From: Nitrososphaerota archaeon | GTDB taxonomy: Archaea; Thermoproteota; Nitrososphaeria; PSMU01 | Assembly (NCBI GenBank): GCA_040290255.1 | Contig: PSMU01000001.1 | Span: 328,699-392,698 of the forward strand | Length of the DNA stretch: 64,000 bases | Direction of reading: 5' to 3' | Shown here: positions 43,117 through 49,874 of the stretch, piece after piece | Position numbering within the stretch: the stretch's first letter is position 1 | Layout of the letters: every line of letters starts with the position of its first letter | Translations under genes and position numbers: made by a program | Notes under the pieces: generated by a model | What the model was told of the DNA's origin: nothing | Seen by the model: the letters and a program-made list of their open reading frames with translations, nothing else | Database searches by the model: none

Positions 43117-43482
43117 TTATCCTTTTCCCGAGGCCAGCGCGAGGAGCAGCGAGAGCGCGAGCAGCGCTGCCAGCGCCACCGAGATGCCGCCGTATGCGAT
43201 GGCGATAAGATAGGCCCCCAGGGCCCCGAAGGAGAGGAAGGCCACGGCCTGGTAGAGGTGCGCCAGCAGGCTAGTTGCCAGCGTGGAGATGATGAGCGCT
43301 CGCCAGCGCTCGTTCATCTTTCCCTTCCTCACCAGGGCGTAGAGCGAGAGCAATGAGGCGGCGCTGAGCGCCAGCAGCCTGGCGCCGCCCTGGCCCAGGA
43401 GCACCGCGATGGCCCAAAAGGCTGCGTTGGCCAGGAGCGAGGCCAGCAGCAGATGAAGCCCCCTCACGCCCCTCCTGGGCAA
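43117..43482 (-). CDS. small integral membrane protein (hypothetical)
   Basis: 121 aa, 3-4 TM helices; no family recognised. Confidence 0.4.
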   Translation of the reverse strand: MPRRGVRGLHLLLASLLANAAFWAIAVLLGQGGARLLALSAASLLSLYALVRKGKMNERWRALIISTLATSLLAHLYQAVAFLSFGALGAYLIAIAYGGISVALAALLALSLLLALASGKG

Positions 43483-43625
43483 TCCCTGTTAAAAGCTGCT
43501 GCGGTGGCCGGCATGTGCCGGAGCGATCGTCCAAAAAAAAGGGAATATAGGGCACAAAATTGACCAAGAGGGGTTCTAAGAGCCGGGAAGTGCTGTCCCC
43601 TTAACTTGGAATCCTTTGCGTTAAG

Positions 43626-43637
43626 CCTAATATCATA
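43626..43637. promoter_or_regulatory. TATA-like element (cctaatatcata) about 28 nt upstream of the TTG start of the secreted-protein operon
   Basis: A/T-rich box at canonical distance for a leaderless transcript; an A8 tract and the palindrome CCGGCATGTGCCGG lie further upstream (43513-43546). Confidence 0.4.
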
Positions 43638-43658
43638 TGCTCCCGGGGGCCGTTAGGC

Positions 43659-44105
43659 TTGGAGCGTAGGCTAAGGACCAAACTGGTGGCCGCAGTTCTT
43701 CCTCTGCTAATCCTCCTAGGGGCAAGCGCCGCGTATGCCGTGACCATATCTCTCAGCAGCTCTAACGTAATGCCGATAGGGGGCACGGGACTCGTTACCG
43801 TGAATTGCCCAGCACAACCCTGCGCGGTGAGCAAAGTAACTTGGACGCTGGACACCTCACCTCCCTTCTACGTAGCCAGCGCAACCGTGTCCTGGACGCC
43901 CAGCCAAGATGGAGACTACCAGGTCTGCGTAAACCTCTATGGTAGCGATGGCAACCCGCTCAATAATGGAAGCGGCTGCATCACCAAACGCTTACCTGGA
44001 GGCACGGCTACAAGTACCACCGTGCCCTTCTCTGGGACGGGCTCGTCGAGGCCAAACCCAAGGGATATCTATAAGGTGGAAGTGATAATAGTCCAGACTC
44101 CTTGA
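43659..44105 (+). CDS. small secreted beta-rich protein, paralog A (Sec signal peptide, AYA cleavage site)
   Basis: TTG start; signal peptide LVAAVLPLLILLGASAAYA; mature N-terminus ISLSSSNVMPIGGTGLVTV paralogous to next two genes; Ser/Thr-rich; lower GC. Confidence 0.55.
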   Translation: MERRLRTKLVAAVLPLLILLGASAAYAVTISLSSSNVMPIGGTGLVTVNCPAQPCAVSKVTWTLDTSPPFYVASATVSWTPSQDGDYQVCVNLYGSDGNPLNNGSGCITKRLPGGTATSTTVPFSGTGSSRPNPRDIYKVEVIIVQTP

Positions 44106-44482
44106 GAAGACTTTTTTTGCTGCTGCTTCTCTCAATTATCTTAGCCCCGGCCTACGCGCTCTTAATAAGCCCCGTAAATGTCCAGCCCGCCGAAGGCATA
44201 AGGGTGGACCTCACGCGCCCCCTCAACAGCTGCTTTGAAGTAAAGGGGCTCGCCTTTTCCTTCAGCGCCACGTCCATAACCTCCGTCACGATAACGGTTT
44301 TTAACACATGCAACTCTCGAGAAACGGCGGATGTCTTGATTACCTGGTACCTAAGGGATGGGAGCTCTTTACAGACTCATATGACCATTCAGGTGCCCGG
44401 GCTGGGAACCAAGGCTGGCTCCGCCGCTTTATCCAACCCCATTCCCTTCGCCTCCCTGATTAAGGTGGTCGTGAATGTCTAG
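44102..44482 (+). CDS. small secreted beta-rich protein, paralog B
   Basis: TTG start overlapping previous stop; signal peptide ...ILAPAYA; mature SPVNVQPAEG... Confidence 0.55.
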   Translation: MRRLFLLLLLSIILAPAYALLISPVNVQPAEGIRVDLTRPLNSCFEVKGLAFSFSATSITSVTITVFNTCNSRETADVLITWYLRDGSSLQTHMTIQVPGLGTKAGSAALSNPIPFASLIKVVVNV

Positions 44483-44918
44483 AACTAGGACTTCGGCCGC
44501 GCTGTTCTTCGCGGGCCTGCTGCTCTTATTGATGGCCACCCCCTATGAGGCCTTCTCATCCCTGCTTGCCATCTCCACCATTAGGCCGGTGGGGGGCTCC
44601 GGCCTTGTACCCGTGCCCAAGGACGGCGTGCTGATGATCCGCATAAGCCTAAGCATGGGGGGAAACCTGGCCGATGATCGCATAAATCGGTTAGATATAG
44701 CGCTGCGGGCCTCGGACCCCAGCTACTCCTGCCCCGGCGGCTCGCGGTGTTATACGCTCGCCTATACGCTATATCTGGATAACTCCCTTTCGAGCTCCCG
44801 CAGCCGCGCCGTTTCGGTAACCACTACGGCAACTACAATCACCTTCAGCTTTTCTCCGCTTAATCAGGCCGGCGCGCAAAACCTCTCCATAATAATTAAC
44901 GTGGTGAGAAGTTCATGA
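44475..44918 (+). CDS. small secreted beta-rich protein, paralog C
   Basis: ATG overlapping previous stop; signal peptide AALFFAGLLLLLMATPYEA; mature ISTIRPVGGSGLVPV matches paralog A. Confidence 0.55.
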   Translation: MSRTRTSAALFFAGLLLLLMATPYEAFSSLLAISTIRPVGGSGLVPVPKDGVLMIRISLSMGGNLADDRINRLDIALRASDPSYSCPGGSRCYTLAYTLYLDNSLSSSRSRAVSVTTTATTITFSFSPLNQAGAQNLSIIINVVRSS

Positions 44919-45355
44919 TGAAGCGCGAGGCCTTCCTCCTCGGCATGGGCCTTCTCCTAACGGCCTATGGCGGCTATGGGCTGGCGCAGCGCCTCACGCT
45001 CTACTATGTAGCCTCTGGCTCCATGGAGCCCTACTTGCCCACAGGGAGCTTAATATTGGTTGAGCGCGGCGCCGTGCCCGCGGCCGGCGACATAGCGCTA
45101 GTGAACTATTACGGTGAGCCGCTCGTGCATAGGGTCGTGCGGGTAGACCCGAGCTCGGGCATAATATGGCTTACCGCCGACGCGCAGCCGGGCTTCGTTC
45201 AGCAAGCAAAGCTGAGGGATTTAATCGGCGTCGTCGTCCTGGCATTGCCCTACTTTGGCTATATGGCCATGCTTGCAAGGGCTTACCCCTGGCTTACTAC
45301 AGCTATGCTGGGAGCGCTTATATCGCTAATCCTATTGAGGTGGATTAAGGGGTGA
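44915..45355 (+). CDS. signal peptidase I, archaeal/ER (Sec11/SipW) type
   Basis: N-terminal TM, SGSMEP box B with nucleophilic Ser, GDIALVNYYGEPLVHRVVRV box D His, C-terminal second TM as in SipW; ATGA overlap with upstream gene. Confidence 0.75.
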   Translation: MMKREAFLLGMGLLLTAYGGYGLAQRLTLYYVASGSMEPYLPTGSLILVERGAVPAAGDIALVNYYGEPLVHRVVRVDPSSGIIWLTADAQPGFVQQAKLRDLIGVVVLALPYFGYMAMLARAYPWLTTAMLGALISLILLRWIKG

Positions 45356-46632
45356 GGAGGCCCCTCAAGGCGCTCCTTACGCTCGCGCTGCTCTTTCCCC
45401 TACTTGCTCATCCCTCCCATGCCATCGCTTCGGTGACCGTCGACGTCCCCTTTCAAATATCAGCCACGCTTGATGGAAGGCCGCTGCTGATAAGCGGCGC
45501 GGCGCAGGTCTCCGGCACGCTGTGCCTGCCCCTGCTCGTGTACGCTTCTCCTCTAGAGCGCTATGCCTTCGAGGGCTGGTATGTTAATGCCACGCGCATC
45601 TCAACGGGCTCCTGCCTAAGCGTAAGCGAGGGCAGCTACCTGGCGCACTACAAGCCGCAGTTCCTGGTGGGCCTGGCCTCGGATCCGCCGGGCCTCCTCT
45701 CGACGAGCCTTTGGGCAAATGCGAGCGAGCCCACGCCCATTTCCCTTCCGACGCAGATAGAGCGAGAAGGGGTGAGGGCCAGGCTTATCGCCGCTTACTT
45801 CAACGGATATCCCCTTCCAATAATAAACGGGAGCATCGTCATAGGCGTAAGGGCCCCAGCCCTAATAACCCTGGCCTATGAGAAGTTCGTGAGGATAACC
45901 ATCATGGGCCCTAACTTCACGCGAGAGCTCTGGGCCAGGGCCGGAGCGCCGATAGCCCTACCGCTTCCTGATTATGTGCCCGTAGCCGAGGGCGCAAGAT
46001 TACGGCTGGTCGCAGCGTATGCTGGGCAGACAGAGATAGGCCGAACCTACATACCCGGCGAGCCCGTGCTCATAGCCGCGGCCTATGTAAGGCAATATTA
46101 TGTGAGGGTAAGCTCGCCCCAGGGGGCTTTAGTTGAGGGCTGGTATGATGAAGGCACTCAGCTCAGTATATCCGCGCCTGAGATGATAAGCATGGGCCCC
46201 GGCAGGAGGCTGGCCTTCCTGGGCTGGAGCGGCATAAACTACACGGGCAGCAGCCTCGGCTTAACTGTACGGGCTCCGATCAACGCCACGGCCCTGTACG
46301 AGCTCCAGGTGGAGGTTCAGCTAATGACTCCCCTGGGAACTTCGAGCTACTGGATAGGAGCGGGGAAGACGATGGCCCTCAGCCTGCCCACCTCCCTTCC
46401 CGCCTCCCTCGGCTTCGTCAGAAGCCTGGTGGGCGTAACGATGAATGGAAAGAGCCTGCCAGTAGATAAGGGCATAATCATGGTTACCCCCCTCGAGCCC
46501 TCGATGGTGGTGGCGCAGTATTCGCTCTCACTGGACCCTCAGGGCCTCCTAATACTTGCAGGGATTGGGCTGCTCATTTCGGCGCTTTACCTCGGCCTGA
46601 GCAGGGCCAAGAAGAGGGAGAAGCCCGATTAG
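45352..46632 (+). CDS. large secreted protein with C-terminal TM anchor and basic tail (surface-anchored)
   Basis: GTG start overlapping SPase stop; signal peptide ...LAHPSHA; repeated F/L.GW motifs; many N-x-S/T sequons; C-terminal LLILAGIGLLISALYLGL + SRAKKREKPD. Confidence 0.6.
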   Translation: MRRPLKALLTLALLFPLLAHPSHAIASVTVDVPFQISATLDGRPLLISGAAQVSGTLCLPLLVYASPLERYAFEGWYVNATRISTGSCLSVSEGSYLAHYKPQFLVGLASDPPGLLSTSLWANASEPTPISLPTQIEREGVRARLIAAYFNGYPLPIINGSIVIGVRAPALITLAYEKFVRITIMGPNFTRELWARAGAPIALPLPDYVPVAEGARLRLVAAYAGQTEIGRTYIPGEPVLIAAAYVRQYYVRVSSPQGALVEGWYDEGTQLSISAPEMISMGPGRRLAFLGWSGINYTGSSLGLTVRAPINATALYELQVEVQLMTPLGTSSYWIGAGKTMALSLPTSLPASLGFVRSLVGVTMNGKSLPVDKGIIMVTPLEPSMVVAQYSLSLDPQGLLILAGIGLLISALYLGLSRAKKREKPD

Positions 46633-46732
46633 GCGCGTACCTCCGCGGTCTGACGGCTCCTTAGCGAGCTAAGCAGGGGAAGGGCCCCAGCAGGTATGTC
46701 TCGATTATAATGTCTGGTGGCCGGGCGCGCGC

Positions 46733-47281
46733 CTACCTGGAGGCCAGCTGGCCGGAGAGCAGCAGCCCCCAGGCGAGCACCGGATAGACGATCATCCTCT
46801 CGATCCCTCCCCTGCCCAGGCCCAGGTCCACGTTGGCCAGGAAGAGCAGCAGCGAGAGCAGGCTGAGGAGGCCCAGCAGCAGATGTAGCGGCCTTAGGGC
46901 CGGGGGCGAGATGCGATACGAGGAGAGCGCGGCCAGCCCCGAGAAGAGGAAGGCGATGAGCGAGAAGAGGCCATGTAAGAGGCCGAAGCGCTCGTTGAAG
47001 AGGCCCACGCCCAGGGCGCCTATGCCCGCGAGCGCGAGCAGCAGCCTAAAGATCCTGCCGTAGCCTTCGCCCAGCCAGTAGCTGCCCGCCAGCACGAGCA
47101 GGCCCAGCAGCGAGACCGAGCCGTTGAAGGCCCAGGCGGAGGGGCCCACGCCCAGGTCGCTGATGAAGTTCTGGGAGACGCTGTAGTCCGGATAGAGGGC
47201 CTCCGCGGCCAGCAGGCCCAGCAGCAGGAACTGGATCACGCCCACCGAGAAGGCAAGGGAGGCAAGGTGCACCCTGTTCAT
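46733..47281 (-). CDS. integral membrane protein (DUF998-like, tentative)
   Basis: 183 aa from internal Met MNRVHL; 5-6 TM helices; ISDLG motif reminiscent of DUF998; longer ORF-track version would overlap the polB promoter. Confidence 0.45.
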   Translation of the reverse strand: MNRVHLASLAFSVGVIQFLLLGLLAAEALYPDYSVSQNFISDLGVGPSAWAFNGSVSLLGLLVLAGSYWLGEGYGRIFRLLLALAGIGALGVGLFNERFGLLHGLFSLIAFLFSGLAALSSYRISPPALRPLHLLLGLLSLLSLLLFLANVDLGLGRGGIERMIVYPVLAWGLLLSGQLASR

Positions 47282-47339
47282 GCCAAGGCCCTGGGGGGTT
47301 AGGTTTATATGCGCTCGCAGGGCCCGAGCGGCACACGAT

Positions 47340-49874
47340 ATGTTCGAGGGCGGGGGAACGGTCGCGGCGAAGCTCCGGCAGCTCACCGCCCATACGAGCA
47401 ACCTCCCGCCCTCCATGCTCGTCTCCGCCACCTATAACGGCGAGCAGGCCGTGGCCGTGCTGAAGTTCTACGAGCCCTCGGGCCAGCGCATCTATCTCTG
47501 GTACGACAGGACGGGGCACAGGCCCTATTGCTATACGCTGCTGGGCCTTGAGGAAACCAGGGCCCGGCTCAGGGGCTTCATGGACCTGAGGTTCCAGGAG
47601 GAGGAGAAGTATGACCTGCTGGAGGATAGGCCCAGGAGGGTCACGAAGATCGTCGCGCCCGACCCGCTCACCATAGGCGGGGGCAAGAAGTCCGTCAGGA
47701 ACGATATAGAGGCCTGGGAGGCCGACATAAAGTACTATGAAAACTACCTGTATGATAATAACCTGCACGTGGGCGCCTTCTACCGCATCGTCGACGACGT
47801 GATCCAGCCCGTGCCCTATGAGCTGCCGCAGGAGGTCGGCAGGGTGCTCGAGGAGCTGCTGCAGGAGAACGAGAGGGAGCTGAGGGACTACATCAAGGAG
47901 TGGGCGGTGCTGCTCAACCAGCCCCTGCTGAACTTCAAGAGGCTGGCCCTCGATATAGAGGTGGATGCCGGCGGCCTGAACCGCGTGCCCGACACGGCCG
48001 AGGCCAAGGAGAGGGTGCTGGCGATAGGGCTGGTGGGCAGCGATGGCAGAAAGGAGGTGCTGCTGCTCAGGAGGGAGAGGCCGCTGGGCGAGAAGGGCGG
48101 GCTGGAGGCCAGCGTCATCCCCTTCGAGGACGAGCGCGAGATGCTGCTCTCGGCCTTCGAGAGGATGATGGAGTACCCCTTCGTGGTCACGTTCAACGGC
48201 GATGACTTCGACCTCAACTACCTGTACCACAGGGCGCTCAGGCTGGGCATTCACAGGGAGGCGATCCCCATCACGATGGGCCGCGACTATGCCGCGCTGG
48301 CGCACGGCGTGCACATAGACCTCTACCGCACCTTCGTCAACAGGTCCATCCAGAACTACGCCTTCGGCAGGAGGTACACGGAGCACACGCTGGAGGGCGT
48401 GGCGGAGGGGCTGCTGGGCGAGGGGAAGCTGGAGTATGAGGGGCGCCTGGAGGATCTCCCGCTGCTCTCGCTCGCCCAGTACTGCTACAGGGATGCCCAG
48501 CTCACGTACCAGCTGACCTCCTTCGACGATGAGGTGCTGCTGAAGCTGCTGACGGTCATCGCGAGGATAGCGAAGCTGCCCATCGATGACGTGGCCCGGC
48601 TGGGCGTCTCGCAGTGGATAAGGAGCATGATGTACATGGCGCACAGGCGCCAGGGCTACCTGATACCCAGGAAGGACGATTTGGCCAGGAAGGGGGGCGC
48701 CTCGTCGGAGGCCGTCATCAGGGGCAAGAAGTACAAGGGCGCGCTGGTGGTGGAGCCCAAGTCCGGCGTGCACTTCAACGTAAAGGTGCTGGACTTCGCC
48801 TCGCTGTACCCCAGCATCATCAAGGTCTTCAACCTCTCATATGAAACGGTGCGCTGTCCCCATCCCGAGTGCAGGGCCAACGTCATCCACGAGACCGACC
48901 ACTGGGTCTGCACCAAAAGGAGGGGCATCACCTCGCTGCTGATCGGCAGCCTGAGGGACCTCAGGGTCAAGTACTACAAGCACCTCGCCAAGAGCCCGGG
49001 GCTCAGCAGGGTGGAGAGGAGCTTTTACTCGGTCATCTCCCAGGGCCTCAAGGTGATCCTGAACGCCGCCTACGGCGTCTTCGGCTTCGAGGAGTTCCCC
49101 CTGTACTGCCTGCCCGTGGCCGATGCCACGGCCGCGATAGGGCGCTACATCATCAGCAGGACGATCGAGCAGTGCGGGACGCTGGGCGTCGAGGTGGTCT
49201 ACGGCGACACCGACAGCCTCTTCATCAAGAGCCCCGCCGAGGAGCCCGTGGAGAGGATCAGGAGCTGGGCCGAGGCGGAGCTGAGGGTCGAGCTGGAGCT
49301 GGACAAGGTCTACAAGTACGCCGCCTTCAGCGGCAGGAAGAAGAACTACTTCGGCGTGCTGCCCGATGGCTCCGTGGACATAAAGGGCTTGACGGGCAAG
49401 AAGTCCCATACGCCCCTCTTCATAAAGAAGCTCTTCCAGCAGGCCCTGCAGTACTTGGGCGAGGTGAACACGCCCGAGGACTTCATGAAGGCCCGGGAGA
49501 GGACCAAGGAGCTGCTGCGCGAGGGCTACCTGCAGCTGAAGGAGAGGAAGGTGCCGCTGGAGGAGCTGGCCTTCAGGGTGATGCTGGGCAAGAACCCCGA
49601 GGAGTATGCGGAGACGACGCCCCAGCACATAAAGGCGGCCCGGCTGCTGCAGGAGAGGGGCAAGGAGGTGAAGGCCGGCGACATCATCTACTTCGTGAAG
49701 GTGATGGGCCCGCTGGGCGTAAAGCCCCTGGAGCTCACCAGGAAGGAGGAGGTGGACGTGGACAAGTACGTGGAGTTCCTCAAGGGCACCTTCGAGCAGG
49801 TGCTCGATGCCCTGGGCTATGACTTCGAGGAGCTGATGGGCGCCAGGAGGCTGGAGGAGTTCTTCGTCAGCTAG
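47340..49874 (+). CDS. polB: family B DNA polymerase
   Basis: Exonuclease motifs, DFASLYPSII (motif A), KVILNAAYG (motif B), YGDTDS (motif C); start at MFEGGG with TATA-like gtttatat about 30 nt upstream; no intein-sized insertion. Confidence 0.9.
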   Translation: MFEGGGTVAAKLRQLTAHTSNLPPSMLVSATYNGEQAVAVLKFYEPSGQRIYLWYDRTGHRPYCYTLLGLEETRARLRGFMDLRFQEEEKYDLLEDRPRRVTKIVAPDPLTIGGGKKSVRNDIEAWEADIKYYENYLYDNNLHVGAFYRIVDDVIQPVPYELPQEVGRVLEELLQENERELRDYIKEWAVLLNQPLLNFKRLALDIEVDAGGLNRVPDTAEAKERVLAIGLVGSDGRKEVLLLRRERPLGEKGGLEASVIPFEDEREMLLSAFERMMEYPFVVTFNGDDFDLNYLYHRALRLGIHREAIPITMGRDYAALAHGVHIDLYRTFVNRSIQNYAFGRRYTEHTLEGVAEGLLGEGKLEYEGRLEDLPLLSLAQYCYRDAQLTYQLTSFDDEVLLKLLTVIARIAKLPIDDVARLGVSQWIRSMMYMAHRRQGYLIPRKDDLARKGGASSEAVIRGKKYKGALVVEPKSGVHFNVKVLDFASLYPSIIKVFNLSYETVRCPHPECRANVIHETDHWVCTKRRGITSLLIGSLRDLRVKYYKHLAKSPGLSRVERSFYSVISQGLKVILNAAYGVFGFEEFPLYCLPVADATAAIGRYIISRTIEQCGTLGVEVVYGDTDSLFIKSPAEEPVERIRSWAEAELRVELELDKVYKYAAFSGRKKNYFGVLPDGSVDIKGLTGKKSHTPLFIKKLFQQALQYLGEVNTPEDFMKARERTKELLREGYLQLKERKVPLEELAFRVMLGKNPEEYAETTPQHIKAARLLQERGKEVKAGDIIYFVKVMGPLGVKPLELTRKEEVDVDKYVEFLKGTFEQVLDALGYDFEELMGARRLEEFFVS

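Follow-up and report, generated by a model that had tools for sequence, protein, structure and literature searches.

A signal peptidase-linked operon of small immunoglobulin-like secreted proteins in uncultured Thermoproteota: a candidate donor-strand-type surface fibre system

The Bacillus signal peptidase SipW, encoded within the tapA-sipW-tasA operon, processes both TasA and TapA. Here we compare such systems with a five-gene operon found in 64,000 nucleotides (nt) of DNA from a hot-spring Nitrososphaerota archaeon (contig PSMU01000001.1 of assembly GCA_040290255.1, positions 328,699 to 392,698, forward strand; hereafter the window), which encodes three small secreted proteins (P1, P2 and P3), a signal peptidase I (SPase) and a larger membrane-anchored protein (P5). 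An initial annotation, made from the sequence without database searches, had proposed a TasA-like or bundling-pilus-type fibre system. Our data partly support that interpretation: the kind of system appears to be right, and the subunit family wrong. By analogy with the Tafi, AbpX and TasA loci, we consider that there is about an even chance that the operon specifies a Sec- and SPase I-dependent surface fibre or adhesive assembly of donor-strand type, built from an undescribed family of subunits that would polymerise.

SipW is needed for TasA owing to an unusual residue near the cleavage site of the latter (PMC10269814), and Haloarcula depends on its locus peptidase, TafD, to make Tafi fibres, which are abolished when TafD is deleted (PMC11821415). 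Sec-dependent taf-like clusters, consisting of an SPase, two to three DUF1102 subunits, a protein of ~300 amino acids (aa) and a DUF5305 protein, occur in Thermococcales and Archaeoglobales (PMC11821415; PMC12337348), while AbpX loci combine an SPase I with minor subunits, tip proteins and DUF5305, and can be as small as the abpX-SPase pair of P. abyssi (bioRxiv 10.64898/2026.01.04.697558). The same preprint unites TasA, AbpA, AbpX, CanA, threads and Tafi as a jelly-roll 'TasA superfamily', and the archaeal donor-strand fibres characterised to date (threads, bundling pili, cannulae, Tafi and AbpX) have all been assigned to it. A signal peptidase set among subunits, the feature from which the fibre system was first proposed, is indeed the pattern of tapA-sipW-tasA, of Tafi with TafD (PMC11821415) and of AbpX loci (bioRxiv 10.64898/2026.01.04.697558). 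The initial suggestion that Pyrobaculum bundling pili also have a dedicated peptidase was not borne out for the P. calidifontis bundling-pilus (ABP) operon, near which the original paper found no such gene (PMC9245690); a later preprint describes AbpA-type genes in general as 'often' co-localised with SPase I.

The five genes lie on the + strand, and successive genes overlap by 4, 8, 4 and 4 nt: P1 (43659-44105, an open reading frame (ORF) of 148 aa with a TTG start), P2 (44102-44482, 126 aa), P3 (44475-44918, 147 aa), SPase (44915-45355, 146 aa) and P5 (45352-46632, 426 aa). These overlaps of 4-8 nt indicate a single tightly coupled operon, in agreement with the translational coupling first annotated. 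Matches in NCBI were found for three of the five proteins (P3, SPase and P5), every one of them titled 'hypothetical protein' and attributed to a 'Nitrososphaerota archaeon' metagenome-assembled genome (MAG).

The peptidase carries the boxes ASGSMEP (Ser36), HRV (His72) and TADAQP (Asp89) and has one N-terminal and one C-terminal transmembrane (TM) segment. Three orthologs, each 34-38% identical to the window SPase, all retain Ser36, His72 and Asp89, its candidate catalytic residues. The protein matches Pfam Peptidase_S24 (PF00717) above gathering score (1.4e-6), the archaeal SPase I family TIGR02228 at 2.5e-8 (33.9 bits, below the cut-off of 51.85) and, in the PDB, human SEC11C (7p2q, 5.8e-5) and SEC11A (7e-4), and so the embedded endoplasmic reticulum (ER)/archaeal-type SPase I of the initial annotation stands. 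Orthology with SipW does not: the score against the SipW equivalog NF046067 was 25.4 bits, with a cut-off of 190. We classify the enzyme, from these profile matches, as a divergent ER/archaeal-type (S26B; Sec11/SipW-like) signal peptidase I that is not a SipW ortholog. Its serine box is the only [ST][GS]SM[EQSN]P box within the 64-kb window. The subfamily comprises 25 clusters at E ≤ 1e-5, and it sits inside the module in every locus extending far enough to show context.

P1, P2 and P3 each begin with a charged or basic n-region, a hydrophobic core and a small-x-small (A-x-A-type) site, and cleavage (marked by an arrow) is predicted at AYA↓V, AYA↓L and AFS↓S, respectively. P1 has a 27-aa Sec signal peptide and a mature form of 121 aa (12.5 kDa, isoelectric point (pI) 6.2); the mature forms of P2 and P3 are 107 aa (11.4 kDa, pI 8.0) and 119 aa (12.5 kDa, pI 9.6). 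The start of P2 varies by gene caller, giving 121 or 126 aa. Tat (twin-arginine translocation) export of P1 was considered and rejected, the RR of its n-region being unconserved and a poor fit to the Tat motif. The exact window versions of P1 and P2 were not in the protein collection searched; the nearest database copy of P1 (P0001, carried on an ENA contig of 208 kb) has a single substitution, in the conserved C-terminal strand, which reads DINKVEV there and DIYKVEV here.

Searches for relatives of P1 recovered six clusters by word-indexed search of 5.8 billion proteins and 64 matches at E ≤ 1e-3 in a full HMMER pass over 1.84 billion representatives, some 50 of the 64 being 130-160-aa secreted proteins of like design. 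Two of the proteins recovered in the HMMER pass (P0057, 256 aa, and P0062, 248 aa) are natural tandem duplications of a P1-like domain, with one signal peptide each. The few large proteins matched by the P1 profile are multi-Ig (immunoglobulin) surface proteins, and these weak matches to giant Big_13/PKD/fn3 proteins reflect generic Ig-like relatedness only. Pfam and NCBIfam scans gave no match for the window P1-P3 or P5. The label 'TasA-like' found no backing for the subunits: neither Pfam TasA (PF12389) nor DUF1102 (PF06510) was matched at E ≤ 1 by P1-P3 or by any of 32 family members, which returned only sub-threshold fn3, PKD, Filamin and Big_13 noise in Pfam, and the P1-family profile searched against PDB sequences likewise returned noise only (MS2 coat protein and Fab chains).

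The initial annotation had called P1-P3 paralogs. Pairwise BLASTP among the three found no similarity, and the claim holds at the level of profiles for two of the three pairs. After removal of the signal peptides, the proteins were grouped by gene position into three classes, whose profiles were compared with hhalign. The P1 class matched the P3 class at 96.8% (E 2e-10) in an alignment that runs from residue 5 and takes in the GG[TS]G motif, and matched the P2 class at 97.6% (E 2.9e-12) over the core only, from P1 residue 30; the P2 and P3 classes matched weakly (34%). Hidden Markov models (HMMs) built from the mature sequences of one class also match members of the other classes. In keeping with these alignments, P3 retains the N-terminal extension with a GGSG hinge and P2 is without the GG[TS]G motif. 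The profile comparisons identify P1, P2 and P3 as remote paralogs, with P1 the central form.

Structure prediction for mature P1 (AlphaFold2, 6-sequence alignment) gave a model with a predicted local distance difference test score (pLDDT) of 79 and a predicted template modelling score (pTM) of 0.76, in which residues 18-120 form a seven-stranded Ig-like beta sandwich and the first 16 mature residues remain at pLDDT <50. Together with the export signals on all three proteins, this model agrees with the earlier description of P1-P3 as small secreted beta proteins. The expected similarity to a TasA or pilin fold was not seen: the best Foldseek matches of the P1 monomer model were Cj0090 (1.8e-4) and DUF1425, the matches were to generic Ig domains (including carbohydrate-binding and Ig accessory domains), the matches listed included neither a TasA-superfamily nor a pilin structure, and the model lacks the jelly-roll core fold that defines the TasA superfamily. 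Sequence and model taken together, P1-P3 are best described as a small, separate and undescribed Ig-like family with no detectable membership of the TasA superfamily. A chaperone-usher pilus was also considered and rejected: chaperone and usher genes are absent, and the P1 model keeps its G strand, a confident C-terminal strand at residues 112-120.

The segment left unplaced by the model is the best conserved. The N-terminal extension of mature P1 (VTISLSSSNVMPIGGTG, encoded at 43740..43790 on the + strand) combines a candidate donor strand (V1, I3 and L5) with a GGTG hinge. Across 33 P1-family sequences the cleavage region follows the consensus A(76%)-Y(70%, else F/W/L/H)-A(82%)↓V-x-[IL]-x-L-x-S-x-x-V-x-x-[IL]-G-G-T-G-x-V-x-V, and the cleavage site with the first 21 mature residues forms the most conserved part of the family. 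Conservation averages 2.70 bits per column in the first 17 mature residues, compared with 2.14 in the rest of P1; hydrophobic occupancy at mature positions 1, 3 and 5 is 0.82, 1.00 and 1.00, compared with 0-0.2 at positions 2, 4 and 6-9; and the GGTG hinge is 88-97% conserved. The P1 family thus has, directly after its SPase I site, the conserved amphipathic N-terminal extension that is a hallmark of the TasA superfamily. In AbpX the donor strand presents residues W2, L6, L8, A10 and I12 (bioRxiv 10.64898/2026.01.04.697558), and in the Mth60 fimbrin the N-terminal strand is 'open' in AlphaFold monomers (PMC11821415). The P1 extension, the best-conserved segment of its family, amphipathic and unplaced in the monomer model, resembles these published donor strands. 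Its alternating pattern, its glycine hinge and its lack of structure in the model, set beside these systems, suggest an amphipathic strand that is a donor-strand-like candidate.

P5 has a signal peptide, six N-x-S/T sequons, a C-terminal TM helix and a short basic tail, in agreement with its first description as a 426-aa secreted protein with a C-terminal TM anchor. The helix (residues 396-419, 46537..46608, + strand) is a hydrophobic segment, is helical in the AlphaFold2 model and is kept in orthologs. The remainder of that model (pLDDT 82.5) is all-beta over residues 28-394 and consists of five repeats linked by long strands. The divergent InlB B-repeat family PF18998 is matched by three of seven P5 orthologs (best 1.6e-4), and P5 itself shows the tandem ~70-aa repeats, F-x-GW motif and B-repeat fold of InlB B-repeat/MucBP-like beta-grasp proteins; this fold is that of Gram-positive adhesin stalks. 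P5 is not TapA- or AbpB-like, is not a DUF5305 protein and has no TapA-like domain. The model suggests an elongated, glycosylatable rod of five InlB-B-repeat-like beta-grasp domains on one TM helix, which makes P5 a candidate membrane anchor, stalk or adhesin. In one ortholog (477 aa; L038:5594-7027) a cytoplasmic C-terminal zinc ribbon follows the TM helix (PF13240, 1.7e-5), which hints at an intracellular partner or some regulation.

The order P1-P2-P3-SPase-P5 recurs in ~15 independent loci and at least four genomic contexts, in Caldarchaeales-like (Ca. Caldarchaeum), Bathyarchaeia, other Thermoproteota and Nitrososphaerota MAGs. A syntenic relative of the window (L036) has the full gene order. 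In Nitrososphaerota, Thermoproteota and Ca. Caldarchaeum MAGs (L007-L011, L013 and L014) the module lies behind a 1553-aa FtsX-domain protein, in a Bathyarchaeia MAG (L035) it adjoins a TraG/TrwB-like ATPase and a DNA methyltransferase, on a JGI metagenome contig (L038) it follows a polysaccharide flippase gene, and it is present on many short hot-spring metagenome contigs (L012 and L017-L033). Two loci are reduced: an Acidilobaceae MAG (L015) has P1-SPase-P5, with P1 its sole small subunit, and a Thermoproteota MAG (L037) has one subunit and the SPase only. Because these two loci retain P1-SPase-P5 and subunit-SPase, respectively, we take the subunit and the SPase to be the core of the module. 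The distribution indicates that the gene order is not due to chance and that the locus is a self-contained, mobile and horizontally scattered module. A genome scan with the SPase motif returned four loci only, and the contigs of two distant family members (P0061 and P0053) are too short to show gene context.

Several neighbours of the module elsewhere deserve mention. The 1553-1570-aa FtsX-domain membrane protein (L007-L011:1000-7675) has a large extracellular N-terminal region and, with uncharacterised proteins of 339 and 296 aa, precedes the module. The ATPase beside the Bathyarchaeia module is a 636-aa TrwB/TraG-like protein with faint Pfam matches (L035:2332-4242, - strand), and the methyltransferase there is an N6_N4 DNA methyltransferase (L035:1-878). 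Near the reduced subunit-SPase pair is a 438-aa protein (L037:8847-10163, - strand) whose C-terminus looks tyrosine-recombinase-like by eye, no family search having been made, and helix-turn-helix genes lie close by. Integrative or conjugative elements may be what carries the module between genomes.

How might such an assembly work? Judged at the level of sequence, P1, P2, P3 and P5 would be exported by the Sec pathway. The operon SPase would then cut P1-P3 at A-[YFW]-[AS]↓V, freeing ~12-kDa Ig-like domains with an N-terminal extension, and this extension (V-x-I-x-L plus the GGTG hinge) could dock as a beta strand on the next subunit. P1 would be the major subunit, because it alone is kept in reduced loci, and P3, with the extension and hinge retained, and P2, whose N-terminus differs, may serve as minor, adaptor or terminal subunits. 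The rod predicted for P5 could hold the assembly at the membrane, span the pseudo-periplasm or act as an adhesin.

Several observations weigh against the fibre reading. Monomeric P1 is modelled with confidence as a closed sandwich of seven strands in which no strand is obviously lacking, and Pfam, PDB profile and structure searches gave no structural or sequence link between the subunits and a known pilin or fibre subunit. No DUF5305 (TafG) domain was found on the window proteins or in the precomputed Pfam lists of related loci, and the module loci contain no chaperone, usher or ATPase. Conservation beside the cleavage site could also be due in part to SPase recognition. Recognition by SPase I normally uses positions -3, -1 and +1, and would not account for conservation out to +21.

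In an alternative that we regard as unlikely yet worth serious attention, the locus makes a non-filamentous surface complex: P5 would be a membrane-anchored adhesin or stalk, P1-P3 would be small Ig-like accessories bound at fixed stoichiometry to P5 or to the S-layer, where they might form a cap or a ligand-binding head, and the N-terminal segment would serve P5 docking or SPase recognition. A complete Ig-like sandwich such as that of the P1 model needs no fold completion, the structures most similar to it are Ig domains that do not polymerise and small lipoproteins (Cj0090, DUF1425), P5 resembles a classical adhesin stalk, and the three paralogs are fixed in order and number in most loci, all of which would suit such a complex. 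However, one reduced locus lacks P5 (L037) and another has a single small subunit (L015), and the subunit-SPase pair therefore functions in the absence of the proposed partner; the amphipathic extension and glycine hinge are typical of strand-donating subunits; and the characterised loci of this architecture all make fibres (PMC11821415; bioRxiv 10.64898/2026.01.04.697558).

Less probable again, and in our view rather improbable, is a non-structural secreted or pseudo-periplasmic role (binding of metal, glycan or another ligand, or envelope protection), with the SPase dedicated to an unusual site (aromatic at -2, beta-branched at +1) that the housekeeping enzyme handles poorly. SipW offers a precedent, TasA having an unusual residue near its site (PMC10269814), and the high conservation of the cleavage region and the carbohydrate-binding and Ig accessory domains among the fold matches are compatible with this explanation. 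Yet we see neither a conserved ligand-binding motif nor catalytic residues, conservation reaches 21 residues beyond the cleavage site, and three co-transcribed paralogs and an anchored rod are left unexplained.

A type IV pilus-like or chaperone-usher-like system with other machinery elsewhere is very hard to credit: although one P1 (MKKA↓LVLL, in L012) fits the class III signal-peptide pattern by eye, the family does not keep that motif but does keep A-[YFW]-[AS]↓V following the hydrophobic core, mature P1 is modelled as all-beta with no N-terminal helix, the locus peptidase belongs to S26 and is not an aspartic prepilin peptidase, and all the loci examined lack an ATPase, a PilC-like platform, PibD, a chaperone and an usher. 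A type IV pilus or archaellum had been rejected as a candidate in its own right, a class III signal peptide, prepilin peptidase, ATPase and platform having been found in no locus.

A donor-strand-type fibre or adhesive assembly remains the reading we favour, and a bolder form of it is offered tentatively, as something we would sooner doubt than assume: that P1-P3 represent a new class of archaeal non-type-IV filament, with ~12-kDa Ig-like subunits outside the TasA superfamily, a convergent SPase-exposed donor strand that acts without chaperone or ATPase and a B-repeat-rod tether, spread horizontally among hot-spring Thermoproteota, possibly via mobile elements. If P1-P3 do polymerise, SPase-gated strand donation would be a general, repeatedly evolved route to building fibres without ATP or chaperones, and the subunit, at ~12 kDa and thermostable, would be the smallest of its kind known and attractive for structural work and biomaterials. 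If they do not, the locus would still be a clean case of a substrate-dedicated signal peptidase in archaea. The module is rare (~60 sequence clusters among 1.8 billion representatives), unannotated and found in uncultured Caldarchaeales and Bathyarchaeia; to our knowledge, essentially nothing is known about the cell surfaces of these lineages.

An A/T-rich, TATA-like element (TAATATCATAT, 43628..43638, + strand), read from the sequence ~28 nt 5' of the P1 TTG, is a candidate archaeal TATA element and possibly the promoter of a leaderless or short-leader operon transcript. The G+C content of the operon region (44001-46000) is 58%, compared with 65-70% on both sides and in the surrounding 64 kb, which could reflect horizontal acquisition or merely secreted proteins rich in Ser, Thr, Ile and Asn. 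The flanking genes are of housekeeping character and, as initially remarked, do not explain the locus: upstream are a class I aminoacyl-tRNA synthetase, a B3_4-domain protein and a DegT-type aminotransferase, and downstream are a DUF998 protein, a family B DNA polymerase and a threonyl-tRNA synthetase. A 121-aa multi-TM protein (43117-43482, - strand) is transcribed divergently from the operon and has a 117-aa counterpart in the equivalent place of the syntenic relative (L036); being absent from other module loci, it is probably outside the module. Long antisense ORFs are also numerous in the window, among them one of 575 aa (47046-48773, - strand) opposite the DNA polymerase gene; they are artefacts of the kind usually seen where G+C is high. 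Scans of the whole window recovered neither a tRNA gene nor any Rfam family above gathering score.

Compared with described fibre systems, the locus has both the dedicated SPase I and the paralogous candidate major and minor subunits that mark taf-like and AbpX-like loci. With Tafi and taf-like clusters it shares a compact arrangement of 5-7 genes, a dedicated S26 SPase, two to three paralogous secreted subunits and a larger secreted or anchored protein (PMC11821415, PMC12337348), the lack of an ATPase, chaperone or usher, and the Sec signal peptides of the non-halophile versions (Thermococcus, Pyrococcus and Archaeoglobus). It differs from Tafi of Haloarcula and Natrinema and from these taf-like clusters in its smaller subunits (107-121 aa when mature, compared with 150-200 aa), which have no DUF1102 match and only generic Ig-like structure matches; in its SPase, which has two TM segments and no Ig-like C-terminal domain; in the absence of DUF5305 (TafG) and of a regulator; and in its anchor, a B-repeat rod with one C-terminal TM helix.

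AbpX loci likewise have a subunit-SPase core, optional minor subunits and anchor or tip, and an amphipathic N-terminal extension after the SPase I site, as well as hyperthermophile Thermoproteota hosts and signs of horizontal transfer, and the subunit-SPase pair of the most reduced module locus (L037) has a counterpart in the minimal abpX-SPase locus of P. abyssi (bioRxiv 10.64898/2026.01.04.697558). In contrast to AbpX, P1-P3 are not acidic (pI 6.2-9.6, with ~5% Asp+Glu in the precursors), carry V/I/L at positions 1/3/5 and have a predicted Ig-like fold, and the module SPase has two TM helices where the AbpX-associated enzyme has about ten. One locus in our set (L039:3492-6140) encodes a distant SPase relative of 379 aa with a long multi-TM N-terminus, preceded by secreted proteins of 183 and 238 aa whose mature N-termini (LWSDQLTV and LWKDQLDV; LW[SK]DQL) fit an AbpX-type strand and locus as described in the 2026 preprint. 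Comparison of P1-P3 with this AbpX-like pair by hhalign found no relation.

The Bacillus tapA-sipW-tasA operon resembles the locus in placing an ER/archaeal-type SPase I among secreted proteins of the matrix or fibre, its presumed substrates, and in combining a fibre subunit that has an N-terminal strand with an accessory anchoring protein; it differs in that the SPase here is not a SipW equivalog, the subunits have no TasA/Peptidase_M73 similarity and P5 has no TapA-like domain. Mth60 fimbriae of Methanothermobacter share a fimbrin of ~15 kDa with a Sec signal peptide, encoded in a small four-gene operon (PMC10370314), with an outward-facing N-terminal strand in the AlphaFold monomer (PMC11821415) and self-assembly without ATPase machinery, whereas the description consulted mentions no SPase in that operon. 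Sulfolobus threads (Saci_0406) and Pyrobaculum AbpA are, similarly, Sec/SPase-I-processed donor-strand filaments of Thermoproteota with neighbouring paralogous minor or cap subunits (PMC9715654, PMC9245690), but their subunits are larger (~180 aa, with 11 strands or a jelly roll) and no SPase is encoded at the locus in P. calidifontis or S. acidocaldarius. The module thus shares its locus logic with the TasA, Tafi and AbpX loci and differs from them in every component family.

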